DNA from: Acidiferrobacterales bacterium | Lineage (GTDB): Bacteria > Pseudomonadota > Gammaproteobacteria > Acidiferrobacterales > SPGG2 | DNA length: 64,000 bases | Reading direction: 5' to 3' | NCBI GenBank assembly: GCA_046760105.1 | Contig: JBHIDJ010000005.1 | Span: 4,557 to 68,556 of the forward strand | Shown: in pieces, positions 25,167 through 33,081 of the stretch | How the letters are laid out: each line of letters begins with the position of its first letter | Numbering within the stretch: the stretch's first letter is position 1 | Translations under genes and position numbers: made by a program | Notes under the pieces: generated by a model | What the model saw: only the letters and a program-made list of their open reading frames with translations | The model's database searches: none | Told to the model about the DNA's origin: nothing

Positions 25167-26933
25167 TTAGTCCTCGGCGTCCCAACCAAATTCCTCGACG
25201 ATGCGAAACAGATCAGTCTCGGAGACGATGCCGACCGGGGTGTTCTTGGCTTCGACGATAACGCGGCGGATCCTATTGTCCGCCATTGTCTTAGAAACCA
25301 TTCGCAGCGTAAGGTTGGCCGAAACAGTGACCAACGGTTTGCTGGCGATTTCCCCTACCTTGATGTTGGCTGCCGACCTGTTAGCGCTAACAATCTTCAC
25401 GACGATGTCGCGCTGCGTCATTATGCCCCATCCCCCATCACCATTCGGCTCTACCAGAATCGAGCTGATACCGTTCTCACGCATGCAGTGCATCGCATCT
25501 TCGACTGTCGCGTCGGCGGATATGCTCTTTATGGGAGACATCACGCCAGCAGCCGTCAGCGGCTGGCGACCAGAAGCCTTCATGGCTTCTACTGGGTTAG
25601 CCACGCGTTGCGCCTCGCGCTCCTTGCGCTCCCGATTCAAGGCCTCGCGACGCTCCCGCTCAAAACGTGCAAGATCCTCGTGGCCTCCAGTGATCCTTGC
25701 GATCAAGGCATCCGCGAATGTGCTGGTCGAGATCGTATGGGCACCTTTCATTAGCCGGGCAAAGTCGTAGGTGACAAACTTCTCGCCAATTACCTTTGGG
25801 TAGGCGGCATTAACTAGATCAGCTGCTTCTTTCCAACCCATGTACTCGAGCATCATGACGCCGGACAAGAGCAGTGAGCTCGGGTTTACTTTGTTCTGGT
25901 CGGCATACTTGGGGGCGGTACCGTGTGTCGCCTCGAAGACAGCTACCGCGTCACCGATATTCGCCCCGGGCGCAATACCAATGCCACCTACCTCAGCTGC
26001 AACCGCATCGGACAGATAGTCCCCGTTCAAGTTCATGGTTGCAATGACATCGAACTCACGCGGTCGTAACTGTAGTAGCTGAAAAATGACGTCGGCGATC
26101 CGGTCCTTGATAAGGATTTTCCCGGCAGGCTGCTTACCGCCAAACTGATTGTAGAGCTCCTCTTCCGTCACGGTATAGTCATTGAACTCCTCCTTGGCCA
26201 GTTCGTAGCCCCAGTTGCGAAACGCACCTTCGGTGTATTTCATAATATTGCCTTTGTGCACCAGGGTAACGCTCTCGCGACCATGGTCGACTGCATACTG
26301 GATCGCTTTGCGAACGAGACGCTTGCTCCCGAACGGGCTAATCGGCTTCACGCCAAGGCCGGCATGGTCAAAAAACTTTGCACCCATCTCCTCGCGTAAG
26401 AAACGTGCAAGCTTCTCGTTCTCAGGCGTGCCACTTGGATACTCGATGCCGGCATATACGTCTTCCGTGTTTTCGCGGAAGATCACTACATCCACTTCTT
26501 CGGGATGTCGCAGCGGCGAGGGAACGCCGTGGTAGTAGCGCACTGGCCGCACACAGGCGTACAGATCCAGTGCTTGCCGCAACGATACGTTGAGGGACCG
26601 GAAACCACCACCGATAGGCGTCGTTAAGGGGCCTTTGATCGCAATAACCAGTTCCGTAATCGCGTCCAGTGTTTCCTTCGGAAAGTAGTCACCGTCATAA
26701 AGCGCGGCTGCCTTCTCCCCCATATAGAGCTCGCACCAGTGGACCTTGCGCTTGCCATGGTAGGCTTTGTCCACTGCAGCGTCCCATACACGCAGGCTCG
26801 CCCTCGTGATGTCCGGGCCGATACCGTCGCCCTCTACAAAGCCCACAATGGGATTATCCGGTACACGTAGCTTGCCTTTGCTTGCCGAGATTTTCTCGCC
26901 ATTTGTGGGGAGGGTGACGTGTTTGTATTTCAT
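25167..26933 (-). CDS. icd: NADP-dependent isocitrate dehydrogenase fused to a C-terminal CBS-domain pair
   Basis: Residues 1 to ~415 are colinear with E. coli Icd ([31 protein letters not shown]). A charged linker follows ([19 protein letters not shown]), then ~135 aa with two CBS-like repeats (..[23 protein letters not shown].. and ..[29 protein letters not shown]). Confidence 0.9.
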
Positions 26934-27032: not shown

Positions 27033-29198
27033 TCAATCTAAGATCGCTGACAACGGTGGGCGGCTACGGTGCGGTGGCGGAATCAAGGTGGCACCACTGC
27101 GTTGATCCAGCAAAACCTTGAGCGGCGAATCCAGTACCGGCCATTGGCCTTTCAACACATTGCGTGGGGCGTTACCCTCGAACACGAGGTAGCTGTACTT
27201 ACCGTAGTGTGGGAGCTTTCGCGCCAATCCCGCAAAAGCCATCGGATCGTCGCAGGCGAGCCACGCTAACGTGTGGGCGTCGTTTTTCGGATGCCTGGCT
27301 GCAACGACGACGGCTTCCCGAGGGCGTTCGACATCCCATTCGCCGATGCGAGCACCGTTGTACCGAAAGGACAGTTGTTGAGCAGCCAATGCGGCCACGA
27401 ATTGGGAACGGAACCGGTTTGCCCAGCCGAACAACCAGATGGACCTATCCGAAGGTAAACTCTCGAGTGCATTATCCCAGCGCCACTGAATCCCAGCGCC
27501 AGCGCGCGCCCAGCGCTGCGCGAGATCGCGGTACTGGGTTCGAGTAGCACTGGGCTCGTCAGCGGCCACGATGATCAGCATCCGTTCGCTAGCAAAGAGT
27601 TGTCCTAATGATGGAGGCATTTCGTTGCGCTCGAGCCGCCGGAAGACGTCGAACGCAGGATCGACCTCCAGCAACCAGGGACGTGCCGGCACAGCAAAAC
27701 TAAGCTCCGCTCGCCGCTCGCTCATCACGATTGTCGTCTCGAAAGGCTGGTCATGCGCCTTCAAGTGAATCACTACCGGGATGCGAAGCACATACGTGGG
27801 ACCTGTCTGGACCTGTTCCAAAACGCCAACAACGCGGTAGTCGCCACCGTACCGACGCACGCGAAGCTTGTCTATGCGCAAACGCGGGGCTCCTGTGCGC
27901 TGTAGCCATTGTGTAAACTCGCTGCCAAGATCAAGTCCGCTTGCAACCTCAAGTGCGTGCTGGATCTCCGCATAGCTAACCCGGCGAAACCGGTTGGCGT
28001 CGTAGAAACGCCGAAGTCCCTCTATGAACGTGGCATCCCCAAGGTGCAGCCGCAGCATGTGAAAGAACATGAGCGTCTTGCCATAACCCACCGCCTGGCT
28101 TATATCTCCGTGCCGGCCGCGAAATTCAGTAAGCGGAAAATCCCGCGTGCTACTGACATAGTCGCTGTACTTCTGCAGGACGCTGCGACGATATTCAGCC
28201 CCTTTGCCTCGTCGCTCTTGCATAAGGTGGTCGGCCAAATAGGCAGTTAGACCTTCGCTCCAATTGCCGCCAGCGGCCGCGACGTACACGCCATTGCCCC
28301 ACCAGTTGTGAAGAATCTCATGAGGGTAGGAAGAATCAACGATGAACGGTAGACGAATCACGCGTTGACCGAGTAGGGTGAAAGACGGCATACCGTAACC
28401 CGACTCCCAGAAATTCTCGATCAGCACAAACTTTTCGTAGGGATATGGCCCCAACAGCCGACTGTATAGATCGATGTACCGGACCGTAGCGTCGAGATAC
28501 ATTGTCGCCAACGCATCATCTGGACCGTGCAGCAGTACCAAGGCTGCGTTCCGCCCGGCCTCACGCTGGTATACGCGATACCGCCCAGCGACCAGCAGAA
28601 TCTGCTCCTGGGGCCTATGCTCACGCCAGCGGATTCGTGACAAATCACTGCCGGCGTCTGTTCGCCGTTCCACCCCTTGACTCACCGCCGACCAGCCCGC
28701 CGGTAAGTCAACTTCTAGGGAAAAGGTCAATAGTGGTCCACCGAAATCGGGGTACCAATAGCTCGATGCCGCGAGATAGACGCCGTCGGTGGAGATCAGC
28801 CCGGGTGTCGTACGGCCAGCCTTACCGTAACGTGGGTCTGACTCAACTAATGAGTGCGCAATCGTGCCACGGTACCGCAATGTGAAATGCCTCTGCGCCG
28901 ATGTCAGACGTAGCCGGAAGCGCTCCACAGGTACCGTGGCGTTGGCTCCACCGTCACGCATAAGCACGATCCCTGGCTCTTCGATGGAAGGGTGCAGCCC
29001 GGCATGGAGTAAGAATGAGAACTCATGCTCGCGCGCGATCATGCTCTGCGGCAGGGTGATCGTGTCACGCGCTTGCAGCTCCCCACTCGCTGGATGAACC
29101 GAGAGCTTGAGATCGTGATGGATCACCGATCCCGCAAAGGCCGGCATGCTAAGGACAAACAGCGTGATCCGAAACAGCTTGCGAAAAATTGCGCTCAT
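27033..29198 (-). CDS. M1-family (gluzincin) metallopeptidase, secreted
   Basis: HEILHNWWGN followed by WSEGLTAYL (HEXXH-X18-E). Start trimmed to the ATG at 29198, giving the signal-like MSAIFRKLFRITLFVLSMPAFAG. It carries a ~250-aa C-terminal region of unknown function. Confidence 0.8.
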   Translation of the reverse strand: MSAIFRKLFRITLFVLSMPAFAGSVIHHDLKLSVHPASGELQARDTITLPQSMIAREHEFSFLLHAGLHPSIEEPGIVLMRDGGANATVPVERFRLRLTSAQRHFTLRYRGTIAHSLVESDPRYGKAGRTTPGLISTDGVYLAASSYWYPDFGGPLLTFSLEVDLPAGWSAVSQGVERRTDAGSDLSRIRWREHRPQEQILLVAGRYRVYQREAGRNAALVLLHGPDDALATMYLDATVRYIDLYSRLLGPYPYEKFVLIENFWESGYGMPSFTLLGQRVIRLPFIVDSSYPHEILHNWWGNGVYVAAAGGNWSEGLTAYLADHLMQERRGKGAEYRRSVLQKYSDYVSSTRDFPLTEFRGRHGDISQAVGYGKTLMFFHMLRLHLGDATFIEGLRRFYDANRFRRVSYAEIQHALEVASGLDLGSEFTQWLQRTGAPRLRIDKLRVRRYGGDYRVVGVLEQVQTGPTYVLRIPVVIHLKAHDQPFETTIVMSERRAELSFAVPARPWLLEVDPAFDVFRRLERNEMPPSLGQLFASERMLIIVAADEPSATRTQYRDLAQRWARAGAGIQWRWDNALESLPSDRSIWLFGWANRFRSQFVAALAAQQLSFRYNGARIGEWDVERPREAVVVAARHPKNDAHTLAWLACDDPMAFAGLARKLPHYGKYSYLVFEGNAPRNVLKGQWPVLDSPLKVLLDQRSGATLIPPPHRSRPPLSAILD

Positions 29199-29268
29199 CG
29201 CCTTGCTATCCTCGCTGCAACAAGCACGCGGCACCCAAAACAGCATTTCCAGGGTACAATGTCATGAA

Positions 29269-30486
29269 ATGACGGTACCGGTCAGGCGACCATTATTCAT
29301 GCGAATCTTCACACTATGTCTCGCGTTGGTGGGCATGATTACACTGTTGTCGTGTCAAAAAACAGGACACCCCCGCCTTGAATCAGTAGCAACATACAAA
29401 CGCCCATCGGGCCAGTTGGCTGTTCGTCATGACGTCAAGGCCATTGACTTGCGTGCGCTATCGGACTTAGACACGATCATCCCACGGCTAGCGGAACAGC
29501 AGGTCGTGTTCATCGGCGAGATCCACGATCGATTCGACCATCACCTCGCACAGCTGGAAATCATCCGGGCGCTTCACGCTATTCACGATAATCTCGTGAT
29601 TGCGGTGGAATATTTCCAGGCACCGTTTCAGCGGTATCTCGACGCCTATGTTGCTGGTGATGTCGATGAAAAGACCTTGTTGAAGGAAACAGAATACTTT
29701 AGCCGCTGGGGGTTTGACTATCGGCTTTACCGCCCAATCATCGAATATGCACGTAAACACGGGATTCCGCTGATCGCCCTCAATCTGCCCGCAGAGATAA
29801 GCAGAAAGGTAGCCCGCTCGGGCTTGGACGGTTTGAACGACAAGGAAAGGGGGCAAATCCCACGCGAAATCGACCGTTCAGATGATGCATACCGCGAGCG
29901 TCTACGCAGCGTATTCGAAAAACATCGCCAGCAAAACACCAGTCTAACCAATTTCGACTATTTCGTGCAGGCGCAGTTACTCTGGGATGAGGCGATGGCG
30001 GAGCATGCCGCCAACTATCTGCGCAGGCATCCCACGCAGCACATGGTCATTCTCGCGGGTAACGGACACTTGCTCTATGGCGCCGGAATACCCCGCCGGC
30101 TGATGCGCCGCATACGGGTCCGCAGCGCCATCGTGATCAATGCTAGCGATGAATTACCGCATCCAGATATGGCGGACTTTCTACTGTTCCCCGCCATGAT
30201 CAGCCTGCCGCCGGCCGCTAGGCTCGGCATATACATGCAAAGCCGCAACCACAGCGTTGTAATCGAAGACTTGGTTCCCGGAGGCGCGGCCATAACCGCC
30301 GGCCTAAAGAAGGGCGATCAGATTGTGGAGGTGAACGCTGATGTGGTAGCCACTCCGAGCGATGTGAAACTTGCGTTACTCGACAAGCAACCAAACGATC
30401 GTATAACCGTCGTCGTTAAGCGCGCTGATGATCATGCTGGTCACCGCTTGATCAACTTCGAAGTCGTGTTGACGGCATCTCATTGA
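29269..30486 (+). CDS. ChaN/Tiki-superfamily (DUF399) lipoprotein with a C-terminal PDZ domain
   Basis: VVFIGEIHDRFDHHLAQLEII.. is typical of ChaN-like haem-binding/erythromycin-esterase-like proteins. The C-terminus has GGAAITAGLKKGDQIVEVN (PDZ). Start at ATG 29269 (or 29299) gives a signal peptide with lipobox LLS-C. Confidence 0.7.
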   Translation: MTVPVRRPLFMRIFTLCLALVGMITLLSCQKTGHPRLESVATYKRPSGQLAVRHDVKAIDLRALSDLDTIIPRLAEQQVVFIGEIHDRFDHHLAQLEIIRALHAIHDNLVIAVEYFQAPFQRYLDAYVAGDVDEKTLLKETEYFSRWGFDYRLYRPIIEYARKHGIPLIALNLPAEISRKVARSGLDGLNDKERGQIPREIDRSDDAYRERLRSVFEKHRQQNTSLTNFDYFVQAQLLWDEAMAEHAANYLRRHPTQHMVILAGNGHLLYGAGIPRRLMRRIRVRSAIVINASDELPHPDMADFLLFPAMISLPPAARLGIYMQSRNHSVVIEDLVPGGAAITAGLKKGDQIVEVNADVVATPSDVKLALLDKQPNDRITVVVKRADDHAGHRLINFEVVLTASH

Positions 30487-30693
30487 TCAGTAGGTTTGAA
30501 GTTTGTCACCGAAATAATTTTCGTACAACAGTACAAGTCACTCAGAGCAACACAGGAGTTTGATAAACTTGCGACATGACAAATCACCGAAGGAACGCTT
30601 CAAGTATAACTATACGTTTCTAGATGAACCCTGCGCGCCTATAAGCGCCAAGCGACATGCTCGACATCCAGAAACCGTAAGACGCTGACCGAC

Positions 30694-31428
30694 ATGAAAG
30701 CAAGACTGGTTGCCTATCTTGATTCCATATTCGAAAGCGTCCGCAATCTGACACCGATCATCCTGGTCATTGCTTTCTTTCAGATGGTGGTTTTACGGCA
30801 GCCGTTGCCAGATCTCGGTGGCCTGCTTTTTGGCACTCTCCTGGTCATTGTCGGGTTGACACTTTTTCTACGCGGGCTCGACATGGGCCTGTTTCCAATC
30901 GGGGATTCCCTTGCCCACGGTTTTGCACGTAAGGGTAGTCTGTCCTGGCTGCTTGTCTTCGCCTTCGCTCTAGGTCTCGGCACAACCGTGGCGGAACCTT
31001 CTTTGATTGCCGTCGCCAAAAAGGCGGCCGTGGCGGCAGCAGAAGATGGCGTGATTAGCAATACCGAGTCAGCGCGCGAGGTGTACGCGCTCGAGCTCAG
31101 ATTCACGGTCGGCCTTGCTGTTGGCTTTGCCATCGTCATAGGGGTAGTGCGGATTATCCGTGGCTGGCCGATTCAATATCTGCTTATTGCCGGTTATGTC
31201 GGCGTCGTCACGATGACCGCGTTTGCACCAAAGGAAATAATCGGCATTGCTTACGATGCCGGCGGTGTGACGACTTCCGCTGTCACAGTACCACTGGTGA
31301 CAGCAGTCGGCATAGGTCTCGCTTCCAGTATCAAGGGCCGCAATCCGATGGTGGACGGTTTTGGCCTTGTTGCTTTTGCCTCACTCACACCGATTATCTT
31401 CGTGATGGCTTACGGAATGCTAACCTGA
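30694..31428 (+). CDS. DUF1538 family integral membrane protein (subunit 1)
   Basis: 244 aa and polytopic. Motifs [21 protein letters not shown] and [17 protein letters not shown] recur in the next ORF. My recollection is that this matches DUF1538. Confidence 0.7.
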
Positions 31429-32297
31429 TGGAGTGGCTACATACATTTCTCGACGTAACACGCGATACCTTGCGTGACGTGCTCCCTATCGCGCTTATCA
31501 TCTTCGCCTTCCAGGTGTTCGTTCTGCGCCGGCGCATCCCTCACCTGAAAAGGGTGCTGTTAGGCTTCGCCTATGTGATTATCGGCATGACTTTATTTTT
31601 GCTTGGCCTTGAGCAAGCGCTGTTTCCGTTGGGCAAAGTCATGGCCGAACAGCTCACAGATCCTGTGTTTATCCATGGCACCATTGAGGCAGTAACTGAT
31701 GTTTTGCGCTGGCAGGATTACAACTGGGTCTACCTGTTTGCGGCTGCCATCGGATTTTCCACGACGATCGCCGAACCGGCTTTGATCGCTGTTGCCAAGA
31801 AGGCGCACCATGTATCGGGCGGCGCCATCAGTGTACGCGGGCTGCGCGTCGCGGTGGCGGTGGGCGTAGCCATTGGTATTGCGCTGGGGTGTTTTCGCAT
31901 TATCACGGGCACGCCGCTTCACTACTATATCATTGCCGGTTACATCGTGGTGATTGTGCAAACGATCTTCGCGCCTCGTCTCATAATTGCTCTCGCCTAC
32001 GACTCCGGCGGCGTCACCACGGGCATGGTGACAGTGCCGCTGGTCGCCGCCCTGGGTCTGGGGTTGGCGGGCACGGTGCCGGGGCGCAGTCCCATCATAG
32101 ACGGCTTCGGTCTGATCGCATTCGCCAGCCTGTTCCCAATCATGGCCGTCATAGGCTATGCCCAGTTAGCTGAATGGCGTGAGCGCCGGAAACGCGCGCG
32201 ACGGGCACAGGAGCTTTTCGATTGGTACGCCCAGAGCGCATCGGGGCAGACTATCTCTGAGACATCGGGCGGAAGCGAACCCAGAGATACGCAGTGA
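31428..32297 (+). CDS. DUF1538 family integral membrane protein (subunit 2)
   Basis: 289 aa paralog of the previous ORF ([41 protein letters not shown]). Its start overlaps the upstream stop (TGATG). Confidence 0.7.
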   Translation: MEWLHTFLDVTRDTLRDVLPIALIIFAFQVFVLRRRIPHLKRVLLGFAYVIIGMTLFLLGLEQALFPLGKVMAEQLTDPVFIHGTIEAVTDVLRWQDYNWVYLFAAAIGFSTTIAEPALIAVAKKAHHVSGGAISVRGLRVAVAVGVAIGIALGCFRIITGTPLHYYIIAGYIVVIVQTIFAPRLIIALAYDSGGVTTGMVTVPLVAALGLGLAGTVPGRSPIIDGFGLIAFASLFPIMAVIGYAQLAEWRERRKRARRAQELFDWYAQSASGQTISETSGGSEPRDTQ

Positions 32298-32329
32298 AAT
32301 AATCTGGCTAAAATAGAGGAAGGGCCATC

Positions 32330-32680
32330 ATGCACTTTAAACTGATCATTACCCTTGTCGAAGACGACAAGACCGATGCGGTGTTGAATGCCACCCGCAA
32401 GGCCGGCGCGACCGGCGCAACCGTCATCAACCAGGCGCGCGGCCAGGGCCTGGAAACGAGCAAGACGTTCTTCGGTCTTGAACTCGAGACGCAGCGCGAC
32501 GTGCTCATGTTCCTAGTCGAGGAGCACTTGAGTCGCAAGATTCTAGAGACCATCGCTGAGGTCGGCGAATTTGACAAGAACCCCGGCGCCGGCATTGCGT
32601 TTCAGATTGATGTTGATGATGCAGTCGGCGTGACTCAGCAGATCCGCAAACTCACTGACGCGGTGGAGGAGGAGATATGA
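32330..32680 (+). CDS. PII-like signal transduction protein
   Basis: 116 aa. MHFKLIITLVEDDKTDAVLNATRKAGATGATVI..ARGQG.. fits the beta-alpha-beta PII/GlnB-like fold pattern with a T-loop-like segment. Confidence 0.65.
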   Translation: MHFKLIITLVEDDKTDAVLNATRKAGATGATVINQARGQGLETSKTFFGLELETQRDVLMFLVEEHLSRKILETIAEVGEFDKNPGAGIAFQIDVDDAVGVTQQIRKLTDAVEEEI

Positions 32681-33081
32681 GCGAGAAAAAACTCATCCGG
32701 GTGCAGGACGTGATGAGGGCCGAGTTTTATATGGTCGACGGCATGGCTACCGTTGAGGAGGCCTTGCGCATCATGAAGCAGAACGAGACGGAGTGCCTAG
32801 TTGTCGATAAGCGCAATCAAGAGGATGAGTATGGATTGTTGCTTATCTCCGACATTGCACGAAGCGTATTAGCCCAAGACCGCGCCCCCCAACGGGTCAA
32901 TGTCTATGAAGTCATGGCCAAGCCGATAATCGCAGTTGACCCAGCGATGGACATCCGCTACTGCGCACGCCTATTCACGCGTTTCGACCTATCACGTGCT
33001 CCAGTAATCGAAAACGGTAAGGTCGTAGGCTTCGTCAGTTTCACTGACCTCGTGATGCGGGGGCTTTCTGAGCTGTACTGA
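32677..33081 (+). CDS. CBS-domain pair protein
   Basis: 134 aa with two CBS repeats (VQDVMRAEFYMVDGMATVEEAL..CLVV ; VYEVMAKPIIAVDPAMDI..RAPVIENGKVVGFVSFTDL). ATGA start/stop overlap with the PII-like gene. Confidence 0.8.
   Translation: MSEKKLIRVQDVMRAEFYMVDGMATVEEALRIMKQNETECLVVDKRNQEDEYGLLLISDIARSVLAQDRAPQRVNVYEVMAKPIIAVDPAMDIRYCARLFTRFDLSRAPVIENGKVVGFVSFTDLVMRGLSELY

Follow-up and report, generated by a model that had tools for sequence, protein, structure and literature searches.

UmpAB-type DUF1538 genes encoded together with a PII-like protein and a CBS-pair protein: a predicted cation/proton antiporter with two candidate cytoplasmic regulators

Few signal transducers are as widespread as PII proteins, the established transporter targets of which are ammonium and bicarbonate uptake systems. 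For one such pairing, SbtB with SbtA, the working model is of a T-loop 'valve plug' that is under adenine nucleotide control. SbtB controls glycogen metabolism as well, and the possession of several targets is typical of PII proteins. Monovalent cation/proton antiporters, too, can be gated in line with metabolic state by small cytoplasmic proteins or domains, as is the case with PtsN-YcgO, RCK/KTN, and KefF/G. CBS-CP12, for its part, binds AMP specifically and exerts an AMP-dependent control over its target, which is a soluble enzyme.

In Halomonas zhaodongensis, the DUF1538 pair UmpAB is specified by overlapping genes and has been shown to act, as a heterodimer, as a Na+(Li+,K+)/H+ antiporter (PMC5484666). 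Antiport was seen in vesicles of E. coli KNabc given UmpAB alone, and the pair behaved as a heterodimer (PMC5484666), and accessory proteins thus are not required for transport itself. The publication concerns two membrane genes only, making no mention of PII or CBS partners, and it is upon this one study, a heterologous one, that the functional characterisation of DUF1538 rests (PMC5484666). In cable bacteria, UmpAB is cited in addition as a marker of adaptation to salinity. What is already known, that is, is the DUF1538 pair as the UmpAB antiporter. What is new here are accessory genes, PII-like and CBS, with a literature search yielding no paper that describes a link between a PII-like protein and either DUF1538 or antiporters.

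The locus considered here is found within 64,000 nucleotides of DNA from an Acidiferrobacterales bacterium (contig JBHIDJ010000005.1), a stretch referred to in its entirety as 'the window'. Four ORFs, all on the forward strand, can be placed exactly: an umpA-like gene encoding DUF1538 membrane subunit A (30694-31428; 244 aa), an umpB-like gene encoding DUF1538 membrane subunit B, which bears a hydrophilic, basic C-terminal tail (31428-32297; 289 aa), a divergent PII-like gene that is named here antiporter-associated PII (32330-32680; 116 aa), and a stand-alone CBS-pair (Bateman module) gene (32677-33081; 134 aa). An earlier note on this DNA had described these ORFs along with their junctions, and both are read as described in the sequence. 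The umpA-like and umpB-like genes overlap by 1 nt at a TGATG stop/start (31426-31430), the PII-like and CBS genes overlap by 4 nt at an ATGA start/stop (32677-32680), and between these two pairs is a 32-nt spacer. That spacer contains a Shine-Dalgarno-like run, GAGGAAGGG (32316-32324), with the start codon of the PII-like gene following 5 nt downstream.

Upstream of the umpA-like gene, and extending back to a ChaN/PDZ gene, is a 5' leader (30487-30693, forward strand) which is without a recognisable regulatory RNA. It has no Rfam match at E<=1, its fold z-score is -0.96, and searches of it for inverted repeats and for a sigma-70-like site found neither; Rfam likewise gave no match in the regions that precede the cassette at 14 loci. 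The earlier note had raised the possibility of a riboswitch preceding the operon, and this idea, or that of a structured leader more generally, is rejected given the lack of Rfam matches (window and 14 loci), the z-score, and the lack of inverted repeats. Further PII-like or CPA genes were sought across the 64-kb window, with none found. Nor does the PII-like gene have amtB or nitrogen-assimilation neighbours, either in the window or in 79 related loci.

The two membrane proteins are 49% identical to one another and both match Pfam PF07556 at full length (profile positions 1-211 of 211 for A, E = 3.9e-66, and 1-209 for B, E = 1.9e-66). The three motifs which the earlier note had read in them, i.e., GL..(G/A)LFP(I/L)G, T(V/I)AEP(S/A)LIAVAKKA, and AYD(A/S)GGVTT..VTVPLV, are all present in both, and its expectations as to domains are borne out as well for the two smaller proteins, with PF00543 at 8.9e-12 and two PF00571 stretches at 2.2e-20, matches that are far beyond chance. 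The note's view of the substrate and mechanism of DUF1538 proteins as unknown, on the other hand, is not supported, as UmpAB has been characterised (PMC5484666). It had treated a placement of the membrane proteins within a characterised transporter family as an outcome that would count against its view, and that placement is seen in part. That is, the best NCBIfam match of A is UmpA (361.7 bits) and that of B is UmpB (331.2 bits), both at full length, but these scores are below the equivalog cut-offs of those models (490 bits for UmpA and 500 bits for UmpB; NF041627/NF041628).

Scores of this magnitude are not peculiar to the window. Ten subunits from nine other window-type loci score 370-401 bits and are likewise under the cut-offs, and even the closest UmpAB relative that was sampled, that of Nitrincola, reaches 487 of 500 bits for UmpB and 420 of 490 bits for UmpA, with PII and CBS genes found downstream of that pair. 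The cut-offs appear to be tuned to near relatives of Halomonas. The original UmpA/UmpB clade, with identities of at least 52-54%, includes Methylococcales, Desulfobacula, Mariprofundus, and Thiohalospira (PMC5484666). Four Methylococcales loci (L039, L073, L080, L084) and one of Desulfobacteraceae (L081) carry the cassette, and their UmpA-like proteins are 63-66% identical to that of the window, the reference here being the window rather than Halomonas. Halomonas itself is not among the best 80 loci of the genome scan for related loci, and an Oceanospirillales-biased profile search returned Motiliproteus, Neptunomonas, and similar, though no Halomonas. Cluster look-ups for UmpAB relatives returned Crenothrix and Saccharospirillum.

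In its architecture the window pair resembles UmpAB in a number of ways. Both consist of two adjacent, paralogous DUF1538 genes with a stop/start overlap of 1 nt and about seven transmembrane segments per product, along with Glu, Asp, and Arg residues that are conserved in common and best full-length matches that are subunit specific. Subunit A of UmpAB has a long loop III-IV and subunit B a long loop II-III plus a hydrophilic C-terminal tail, and in alignments window A has an A-specific insert in loop III-IV while window B has a B-specific insert in loop II-III as well as the C-terminal tail. A difference is that of scores falling under the cut-offs. By family, then, the window pair would be an UmpAB-type monovalent cation/proton antiporter, with activity being predicted from sequence. 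An AF2 model of the umpA-like protein (pLDDT 83) places helix breaks at the TVAE/P and AYD-GGVTT motifs, and a membrane-embedded Glu and Asp are invariant in both subunits. Comparison of the single-subunit model with solved structures yielded no structural relative, antiporters included.

The four genes are found together far more broadly than in the window. Of 75 species-level loci that could be assessed, 70 contain the whole of UmpA-UmpB-PII-CBS, spread over four phyla and found in Gammaproteobacteria, Betaproteobacteria, Nitrospirota, and Desulfobacterota, with flanks that differ between loci. The four-gene order is present in 76 of 87 related loci, the window counted. Junctions are retained as well: the A-to-B overlap, of 1 or 4 nt, is seen at 63 of 82 junctions in related loci, and that of PII with CBS is of 4 nt at 67 of 78 and of 1 nt at six more. 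The earlier note's claim of co-expression is supported, with the four genes, i.e., two DUF1538 paralogues plus PII-like plus CBS-pair, being one co-expressed unit. Among more distant DUF1538 loci, those of Alphaproteobacteria and Clostridia, a PII gene immediately follows DUF1538 in all seven of seven, and in Clostridia a fused, double DUF1538 is paired with tandem PII. The PII link, that is, extends across the DUF1538 family, whereas the CBS gene has been added in particular clades. The earlier note had nothing on this distinction, nor on the lost nucleotide-phosphate contacts and CPA-adjacent relatives that are described below.

The PII-like protein is recognised by the Pfam P-II profile at 45.7 bits versus a gathering score of 25, whereas the earlier note had allowed that it might match no such profile. 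P-II is the only Pfam family found at E up to 10, bar one chance-level match (DJC28_CD, E = 0.18), and no NCBIfam model matches the protein. Its AF2 model (pLDDT 80) has two beta-alpha-beta repeats plus a C-terminal helix, with the T-loop of low confidence, and the top Foldseek matches to this model are GlnK/PII and SbtB at E of about 1e-6 (GlnK1, 2j9e/2j9d, TM 0.66). The T-loop, residues 37-55 (RGQGLETSKTFFGLELETQ), is encoded at 32438-32494 of the forward strand. This segment is conserved better than any other in the subfamily, at a mean majority frequency of 0.82 versus 0.74 elsewhere, and has the motif RGxG...KTFFGLxLExQRD. Also conserved are the motifs of the glycine-rich cleft (GAxGxT, RGxG, and GxG), which line the PII ligand site.

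What is missing are the classical hallmarks of PII. Neither PROSITE PII signature, Y-[KR]-G-[AS]-[AE]-Y for the T-loop and [ST]-x3-G-[DY]-G-[KR]-[IV]-[FW]-[LIVM] for the B-loop, is found in any of 75 subfamily members, while E. coli GlnB, as a control, matches both. In E. coli GlnB numbering, K90, R101, and R103 are the ATP triphosphate contacts of established structures and Q39 the Mg-2-oxoglutarate contact; in the subfamily these four positions align with I/A, G, T/x, and E, respectively, while K58 is kept as Arg. As K90, R101, R103, and both signatures are absent, nucleotide binding by the PII-like protein is not assured. The window protein is devoid as well of Cys, and therefore can possess no redox R-loop. 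As judged from its sequence and predicted model, the protein has a PII fold lacking classical signatures and triphosphate-binding residues. A profile of the subfamily is closer to canonical PII (E = 3e-6) than to SbtB (E = 0.2), and matches PstA/Lmo2692 weakly (E = 0.05-0.15). One subfamily member carries a 'YaaQ' label in its JGI record. The PstA/DarA identity at which this label hints is rejected, given that weak profile match along with Pfam finding P-II only. For the clade overall, the present searches found thousands of sequences from at least five phyla.

With a PII gene in essentially every DUF1538 locus examined, with PII copy number varying with whether the membrane gene is fused, and with nucleotide-phosphate residues lost while a CBS sensor has been added in some clades only, it may be asked whether the PII-like protein is a regulator at all. 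It could instead be a constitutive cap, structural or for assembly, of DUF1538 transporters, with CBS, where present, alone sensing metabolites. UmpAB nevertheless is active in E. coli without a PII-like protein, the cleft motifs are still conserved, and relatives that are solitary or CPA-adjacent are better fitted by a portable regulator, such that we view a mere cap as quite unlikely. A ligand-responsive regulator of the antiporter remains the reading that we prefer.

The CBS protein is a single, stand-alone module of two tandem PF00571 stretches. Among solved structures, its nearest relative is the CBS domain of CBS-CP12 (PDB 5nmu, 3.4e-24), to the CBS pair of which its residues 6-128 align, and by analogy it probably binds AMP. 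Two apparent PII-CBS fusions, P0258 and P0207, were rejected as evidence of interaction. They contain garbled, frameshift-like stretches, and these stretches, together with genes that overlap by ATGA, indicate that the fusions are assembly artefacts.

Given that CBS-CP12 regulates a soluble enzyme, that SbtB acts on glycogen metabolism too and so supplies a multi-target PII precedent, and that one member of a sister PII-like branch has no transporter gene nearby, the two small proteins could be soluble transducers. Their main targets, enzymes or transcription factors, would then be located elsewhere, with the membrane pair serving as a sensor or anchor that reports ion status. Against this, no conserved non-transporter neighbour of functional weight was found among 79 loci. 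The genes nadC, ampD, and ampE do recur beside the cassette in those loci, and these were rejected as functional neighbours since they represent ordinary gammaproteobacterial synteny. What is conserved instead is translational coupling with transporter genes, and we thus consider soluble targets to be highly improbable, favouring still the transporter itself as target.

Relatives of the PII-like gene are found alone or beside CPA antiporters. The sister branch, which is enriched in haloalkaliphiles, adjoins CPA antiporter genes of NhaP2 and KefC type, unrelated to DUF1538, in seven of ten contexts, and some of those NhaP2-type genes exceed the NCBI K+/H+ antiporter equivalog cut-offs. In addition, a KefC-like gene immediately follows the cassette in seven of 80 window-type loci (the best 80). 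The presence of PII-like relatives beside two unrelated antiporter families is pointing to a previously undescribed branch of PII signalling, one that would control ion/pH balance rather than nitrogen or carbon.

Nitrogen or carbon nonetheless must be weighed. The well-studied PII-transporter pairs all concern uptake of one or the other, chemolithoautotrophs are numerous among the hosts of the closest loci, the antiport assignment for the whole family comes from a single heterologous study in E. coli KNabc, and the subunit model lacks a solved structural relative. The membrane pair therefore might carry another substrate in vivo, an ion or small carbon or nitrogen compound, with Na+/H+ exchange by UmpAB being a side activity of overexpression and with the PII-like and CBS proteins still acting as regulators. 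We regard this as unlikely, if somewhat less so than the structural cap or the soluble targets. The same PII-like clade, that is, adjoins bona fide CPA K+/H+ and KefC-type genes, including KefC-like genes right after the cassette, haloalkaliphiles are over-represented in the divergent branch, Glu and Asp are invariant within the membrane in both subunits, and hosts that include marine heterotrophs and gut Clostridia speak against an autotroph-specific role. It is because of those hosts, along with the CPA antiporter link, that a general carbon-concentrating (bicarbonate) role was dropped.

The explanation that we favour, with moderate confidence, is that the operon encodes an UmpAB-type Na+/K+/Li+/proton antiporter together with two dedicated cytoplasmic regulators, PII-like and CBS. 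The two DUF1538 paralogues would form a heterodimeric membrane unit, with the Glu of TVAEP and the Asp of AYDSGG, both at predicted helix breaks, as candidate ion/proton sites. The PII-like protein, presumably a trimer as are other PII proteins, may dock on the antiporter's cytoplasmic face, its conserved T-loop opening or plugging the transport path as set by a ligand, probably an adenine nucleotide, in the glycine-rich cleft. Such a nucleotide would be bound unlike ATP in GlnB. The ATGA overlap may provide CBS and PII-like proteins in fixed ratio, with the CBS protein as a second input, most likely of AMP or energy charge, acting upon either the PII-like protein or the basic tail of UmpB. 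The gene unit, its domains, its conservation, and the link of this PII clade with antiporter genes are shown by the present analysis, while antiport by UmpAB is taken from the literature. For physical docking, ligand identities, and direction of regulation, all of which we infer, the analogy with GlnK-AmtB and SbtB-SbtA that the earlier note had drawn is supported as the best available model and has been kept. Counted against this explanation are that PII proteins are trimers versus the UmpAB that is reported as a heterodimer, that the canonical phosphate contacts K90, R101, and R103 are missing, and that antiport is known from one heterologous study while window scores are below equivalog cut-offs.

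A bolder version may be entertained as well, though tentatively, as we would grant it something short of an even chance. A distinct, ancient PII-like clade would serve as dedicated cytoplasmic gate of monovalent cation/proton antiporters, one that no DUF1538/UmpAB-type transporter from Clostridia to Proteobacteria could do without. It would have been duplicated and then recruited to unrelated CPA1/CPA2 antiporters in haloalkaliphiles, and with a CBS co-sensor it would couple Na+/K+/pH homeostasis to energy state.

If a large PII-like clade does act on two unrelated antiporter families, then ion/pH homeostasis would be added to what PII proteins control. UmpAB, the sole characterised DUF1538 transporter, in that case would have been studied without the regulators which its relatives carry. 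The cassette would represent as well a small, defined, four-protein system for structural study of a fold that is without a solved relative.

Among described PII-transporter systems, GlnK-AmtB is similar in that a small PII-fold protein with an exposed T-loop is encoded beside a transporter, and GlnK structures top the Foldseek matches. The window, however, is without amtB, its T-loop is without the Tyr51 uridylylation motif and its B-loop without GDGK, its PII-like protein is without K90/R101/R103 and has an extra C-terminal helix, and its partner belongs to an A/B heterodimer family whereas AmtB is a homotrimer. SbtB-SbtA resembles the locus in consisting of a divergent PII-like protein that is co-expressed with a cation-coupled secondary transporter. 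It differs in that the window lacks sbtA, its transporter is not similar to SbtA, a CBS partner is present, and the PII-like protein, with its poor SbtB profile match, lacks a cysteine-containing R-loop. PstA/DarA, the c-di-AMP receptor of Firmicutes, is a PII-like protein tied to ion/osmotic homeostasis signalling, but the window subfamily matches its profile only weakly, and most host lineages here, i.e., Gammaproteobacteria, are not known as c-di-AMP producers.

The CBS protein is like CBS-CP12 and CBSX-type proteins in being a stand-alone Bateman module, but it has no CP12 domain and its gene is coupled to a PII gene within an antiporter operon. With PtsN-YcgO, RCK/KTN, and KefF/G, lastly, the fold of the regulator is different, since that of the window is PII rather than EIIA-Ntr, RCK, or flavodoxin-like, and the pairing of PII with antiporters is, in comparison with those systems, known from gene order alone. 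The likeness is in the company kept, that is, in a sister PII-like branch which adjoins NhaP2/YcgO-type and KefC-type genes.

The cassette consists of four + strand genes which encode, in order, an UmpA-like DUF1538 membrane protein (A; 30694-31428, 244 aa), an UmpB-like DUF1538 membrane protein (B; 31428-32297, 289 aa), a PII-like protein (32330-32680, 116 aa), and a CBS-pair protein (32677-33081, 134 aa). All four ORFs lie exactly where the earlier note had placed them, and the junctions it described are indeed present, i.e., TGATG at A/B (1-nt overlap), a 32-nt B/PII spacer, which contains the ribosome-binding-like run GAGGAAGGG, and ATGA at PII/CBS (4-nt overlap). Pfam likewise bears out each of the proposed domains: DUF1538 (PF07556) spans its full model length in both membrane proteins, the PII-like protein matches P-II (PF00543) at 45.7 bits versus a gathering score of 25, and the fourth protein carries two CBS motifs. 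The membrane proteins are 49% identical to one another, and the motifs quoted for them are all common to both. No riboswitch or other structured leader was found upstream of the cassette in the window or at 14 diverse loci. Two 14-nt stretches of the window leader (30646-30659 and 30683-30696) form an imperfect direct repeat, CGCCAAGCGACATG / CGCTGACCGACATG, the second copy of which spans the umpA-like start codon; this repeat probably is due to chance.

Just upstream is a ChaN/Tiki haem-binding plus PDZ gene (29146-30486, +), the longest ORF of which overlaps a divergent M1-peptidase-like gene (27033-29246, -) by ~100 nt. Its true start probably is further downstream, and this neighbor is not conserved at other cassette loci. 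Elsewhere in the window are a 658-aa bacterial dynamin-family GTPase (PF00350; 21017-22993, + strand) and a 588-aa protein (25167-26933, - strand) in which an isocitrate/isopropylmalate dehydrogenase domain (PF00180, 5e-86) is fused to a C-terminal CBS pair, an unusual architecture which is unrelated to the cassette.

The earlier note took the substrate and mechanism of DUF1538 proteins to be unknown, a premise which is out of date as the NCBIfam models NF041627 and NF041628, ‘Na,Li,K/H(+) antiporter subunit UmpA’ and ‘UmpB’, derive from Halomonas zhaodongensis UmpAB, a characterised antiporter (PMC5484666). UmpAB is encoded by a pair of overlapping DUF1538 genes, co-expression of which rescued E. 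coli KNabc with regard to NaCl, LiCl, and alkaline pH; everted vesicles with UmpAB displayed pH-dependent Na+, Li+, and K+/H+ antiport, and UmpA and UmpB co-immunoprecipitated as a heterodimer (PMC5484666). The best NCBIfam match of the first window membrane protein is to UmpA (361.7 bits) and that of the second is to UmpB (331.2 bits), both end to end, with the cross-matches, i.e., A to the UmpB model and B to the UmpA model, about half as strong. The window pair also has the same subunit-specific features as UmpAB, that is, loop III-IV is long in A, loop II-III is long in B, and B has a hydrophilic C-terminal tail (PMC5484666). Both scores are below the NCBI equivalog cut-offs (490 bits for UmpA, 500 for UmpB), and the window pair formally is a family member rather than a proven equivalog. 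Ten subunits from nine other window-type loci are below these cut-offs as well (370-401 bits), and the cut-offs appear to be tuned to close Halomonas relatives. Closest to the characterised UmpAB among the loci sampled is a split pair from Nitrincola (UmpB 487/500, UmpA 420/490 bits), with P-II and CBS genes after it.

Close relatives of the PII-like protein occur in an identical four-gene order in three unrelated neighborhoods. A DUF1538-alignment scan, using one genome per species, supplied the best 80 loci for ORF and phmmer analysis. In all of these the A subunit is 63-73% identical to that of the window, with hosts among the Gamma- and Betaproteobacteria, Nitrospirota, and Desulfobacterota, including cable bacteria. 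UmpA, UmpB, PII, and CBS genes are found in order at 69 of the 80 and, with A and B fused, at one more (L062), so that the cassette is complete at 70 of 75 assessable loci, the other five being interrupted by a contig end or N gap. The exceptions are a broken CBS gene (L025), a missing CBS gene (L069), and three loci with an A gene only (L030, L035, L042). These last three, two of them from giant sulfur bacteria, lack downstream UmpB, PII, and CBS genes although the sequence is long enough to hold them, and may be decayed cassettes. One contig (L067) bears the label of a Halobacteria archaeon MAG, yet the UmpA-like protein that it encodes shares 67% identity with the gammaproteobacterial query; probably it is a mis-binned bacterial contig.

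Translational coupling within the cassette is conserved. Across related loci, PII and CBS genes overlap by 4 nt in 67/78 and by 1 nt in 6 more, and A and B by 1 or 4 nt in 63/82; the B/PII spacer is variable. The commonest neighbors, nadC, ampD, and ampE, represent ordinary gammaproteobacterial synteny. A c-di-GMP-I riboswitch (L031, 7618-7694) and a cspA thermoregulator (L039, 7262-7644), each just downstream of a cassette, belong to the next genes instead.

More distant DUF1538 loci (seven, at ~32% identity, located on plasmids and secondary replicons) separate the two accessory genes. A PII gene is paired with DUF1538 at 7/7 and a CBS gene is absent from 7/7; the PII link spans the family, with the CBS gene an add-on to it. 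In Methylocystis (Alphaproteobacteria), one single P-II gene comes directly after two DUF1538 genes, and Chelativorans (also Alphaproteobacteria) has a similar layout, but with its first DUF1538 gene reduced to a 90-aa remnant. In the Clostridia (Vescimonas, Paraclostridium, Peptoclostridium, Subdoligranulum, Acetoanaerobium; loci L088-L090, L092, L093), a fused double-DUF1538 gene (~500 aa) in every case overlaps a tandem double-P-II gene (~220 aa) just after it, the N-terminal half of the latter being degenerate. At these distant loci the number of PII domains seems to follow whether or not the membrane gene is fused, with a possible bearing on stoichiometry. An exhaustive representative search found many tandem PII forms plus one triple; P0202 is a single-chain triple-PII protein of 357 aa, and P0126 and P0133 are other multi-PII proteins.

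The same PII clade is found beside CPA antiporters, which are unrelated to UmpAB. With a divergent Saccharospirillum member as query, 48% identical to the window PII-like protein, no more than 76 proteins were obtained, many of which belong to haloalkaliphiles (Natronospirillum, Nitrincola, Alkalimonas, Natronocella, Methylophaga lonarensis, Aliidiomarina, Marinobacter). Among ten distinct gene contexts examined for these Saccharospirillum-type genes, a CPA antiporter gene is adjacent in seven and DUF1538 is nearby in five. In Marinobacter nauticus (L094), fused DUF1538, P-II, CBS, and KefC-like CPA2 genes lie one after another on a single strand, with the queried PII-like gene convergent. Alkalimonas (L095) and a metagenomic locus (L102) combine a fused DUF1538-P-II-CBS cassette with an additional PII-like gene overlapping a KefC-like gene at the end of the latter. 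Two loci (L097, L104) have a Na_H_Exchanger gene and then the PII-like gene, without DUF1538. Antiporter genes scoring above the NCBI equivalog cut-offs for ‘potassium/proton antiporter’ lie directly downstream of the PII-like gene in Aliidiomarina (L100) and M. lonarensis (L101). In Natronospirillum (L096) the PII-like gene and a DUF1538 pair are divergently oriented, in Venatoribacter (L098) the surroundings contain no transporter gene, and in Nitrincola schmidtii (L099, 5001-9962) an additional PII-like gene begins a head-to-tail run on one strand which continues with a split UmpA/UmpB-PII-CBS cassette and then a fused DUF1538-PII-CBS cassette. Among the best 80 window-type loci, seven have a KefC-like gene immediately downstream of the cassette. 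The metagenomic locus, which carries an additional NhaP2-type gene, forms an ‘antiporter island’ (L102, 1555-8238), with fused cassette, extra PII-like, KefC-like CPA2, and NhaP2-type genes within 7 kb. In a rough neighbor-joining tree, without bootstrap and with E. coli GlnB as its one canonical PII, all of these antiporter-linked PII-like proteins group apart from GlnB, and the CPA-adjacent branch nests among cassette branches.

An AlphaFold2 model of the window PII-like protein (pLDDT 80) has the beta-alpha-beta-beta-alpha-beta PII fold, with a low-confidence T-loop (residues 37-55) and an extra C-terminal helix (102-115); its best structural matches are GlnK/GlnB, then SbtB (E ~1e-6, TM ~0.66). 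Searched as a single sequence, the protein hits a GlnK2 (E = 0.006); with the subfamily profile, E is 3e-6 for canonical PII, 0.05-0.15 for PstA/Lmo2692, and 0.2 for SbtB. No NCBIfam model matches the protein, which in sequence is far from any solved structure. In public annotation the PII-like and membrane proteins appear simply under the names ‘P-II family nitrogen regulator’ and ‘DUF1538 domain-containing protein’, respectively. Alignment of 75 cassette proteins with distant members and E. coli GlnB yields the signature GAxGxT, RGxG, T-loop KTFFGLxLExQRD, and B-loop PGxG(I/L)AF, with the T-loop the best conserved segment among the 75. The two classical PROSITE PII patterns match 0/75. In GlnB, ATP phosphates and 2-oxoglutarate are contacted by K90, R101, R103, and Q39; the subfamily has I/A, G, a non-basic residue, and E, respectively, at these positions. 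As the cleft keeps its glycine-rich backbone and has lost the phosphate-binding side chains, we infer that the protein still binds a ligand, though not MgATP/2-oxoglutarate as GlnB does.

The closest solved relative of the CBS protein is the CBS pair of cyanobacterial CBS-CP12 (3.4e-24, residues 6-128). [quoted passage not shown] AMP may serve as a lead for the ligand of the window protein.

The gene unit is present, it is conserved, and its PII clade is associated with antiporter genes. The most likely reading would be that the DUF1538 pair constitutes a monovalent cation/proton antiporter, antiport itself being known from the literature for a family member; that the PII-like protein would dock on its cytoplasmic face, with the T-loop gating according to bound ligand; and that the CBS pair, in fixed ratio with the PII protein, would add an adenylate or energy-state input. 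Docking, ligands, and the sign of regulation here all are putative, and PII proteins are trimers whereas the reported UmpAB unit is a heterodimer, a mismatch which the docking proposal still carries. UmpAB works alone in E. coli (PMC5484666), and the PII-like and CBS proteins therefore would be modulators rather than parts of the transport machinery.

The core function of the operon probably is ordinary ion homeostasis, with a regulatory layer which is undescribed, widespread, and directly testable; no description of the link between this PII-like clade and antiporters was found in the open-access full-text literature. PII-type proteins that plug co-encoded transporters are well known, i.e., GlnK-AmtB and SbtB-SbtA, as are small cytoplasmic regulators of CPA K+/H+ antiporters, e.g., PtsN-YcgO, RCK domains, and KefF/G. 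The window-type system differs from these in that its PII clade is distinct, in that this clade is directed at cation/proton antiporters of two unrelated families, and in that it comes with a CBS partner.
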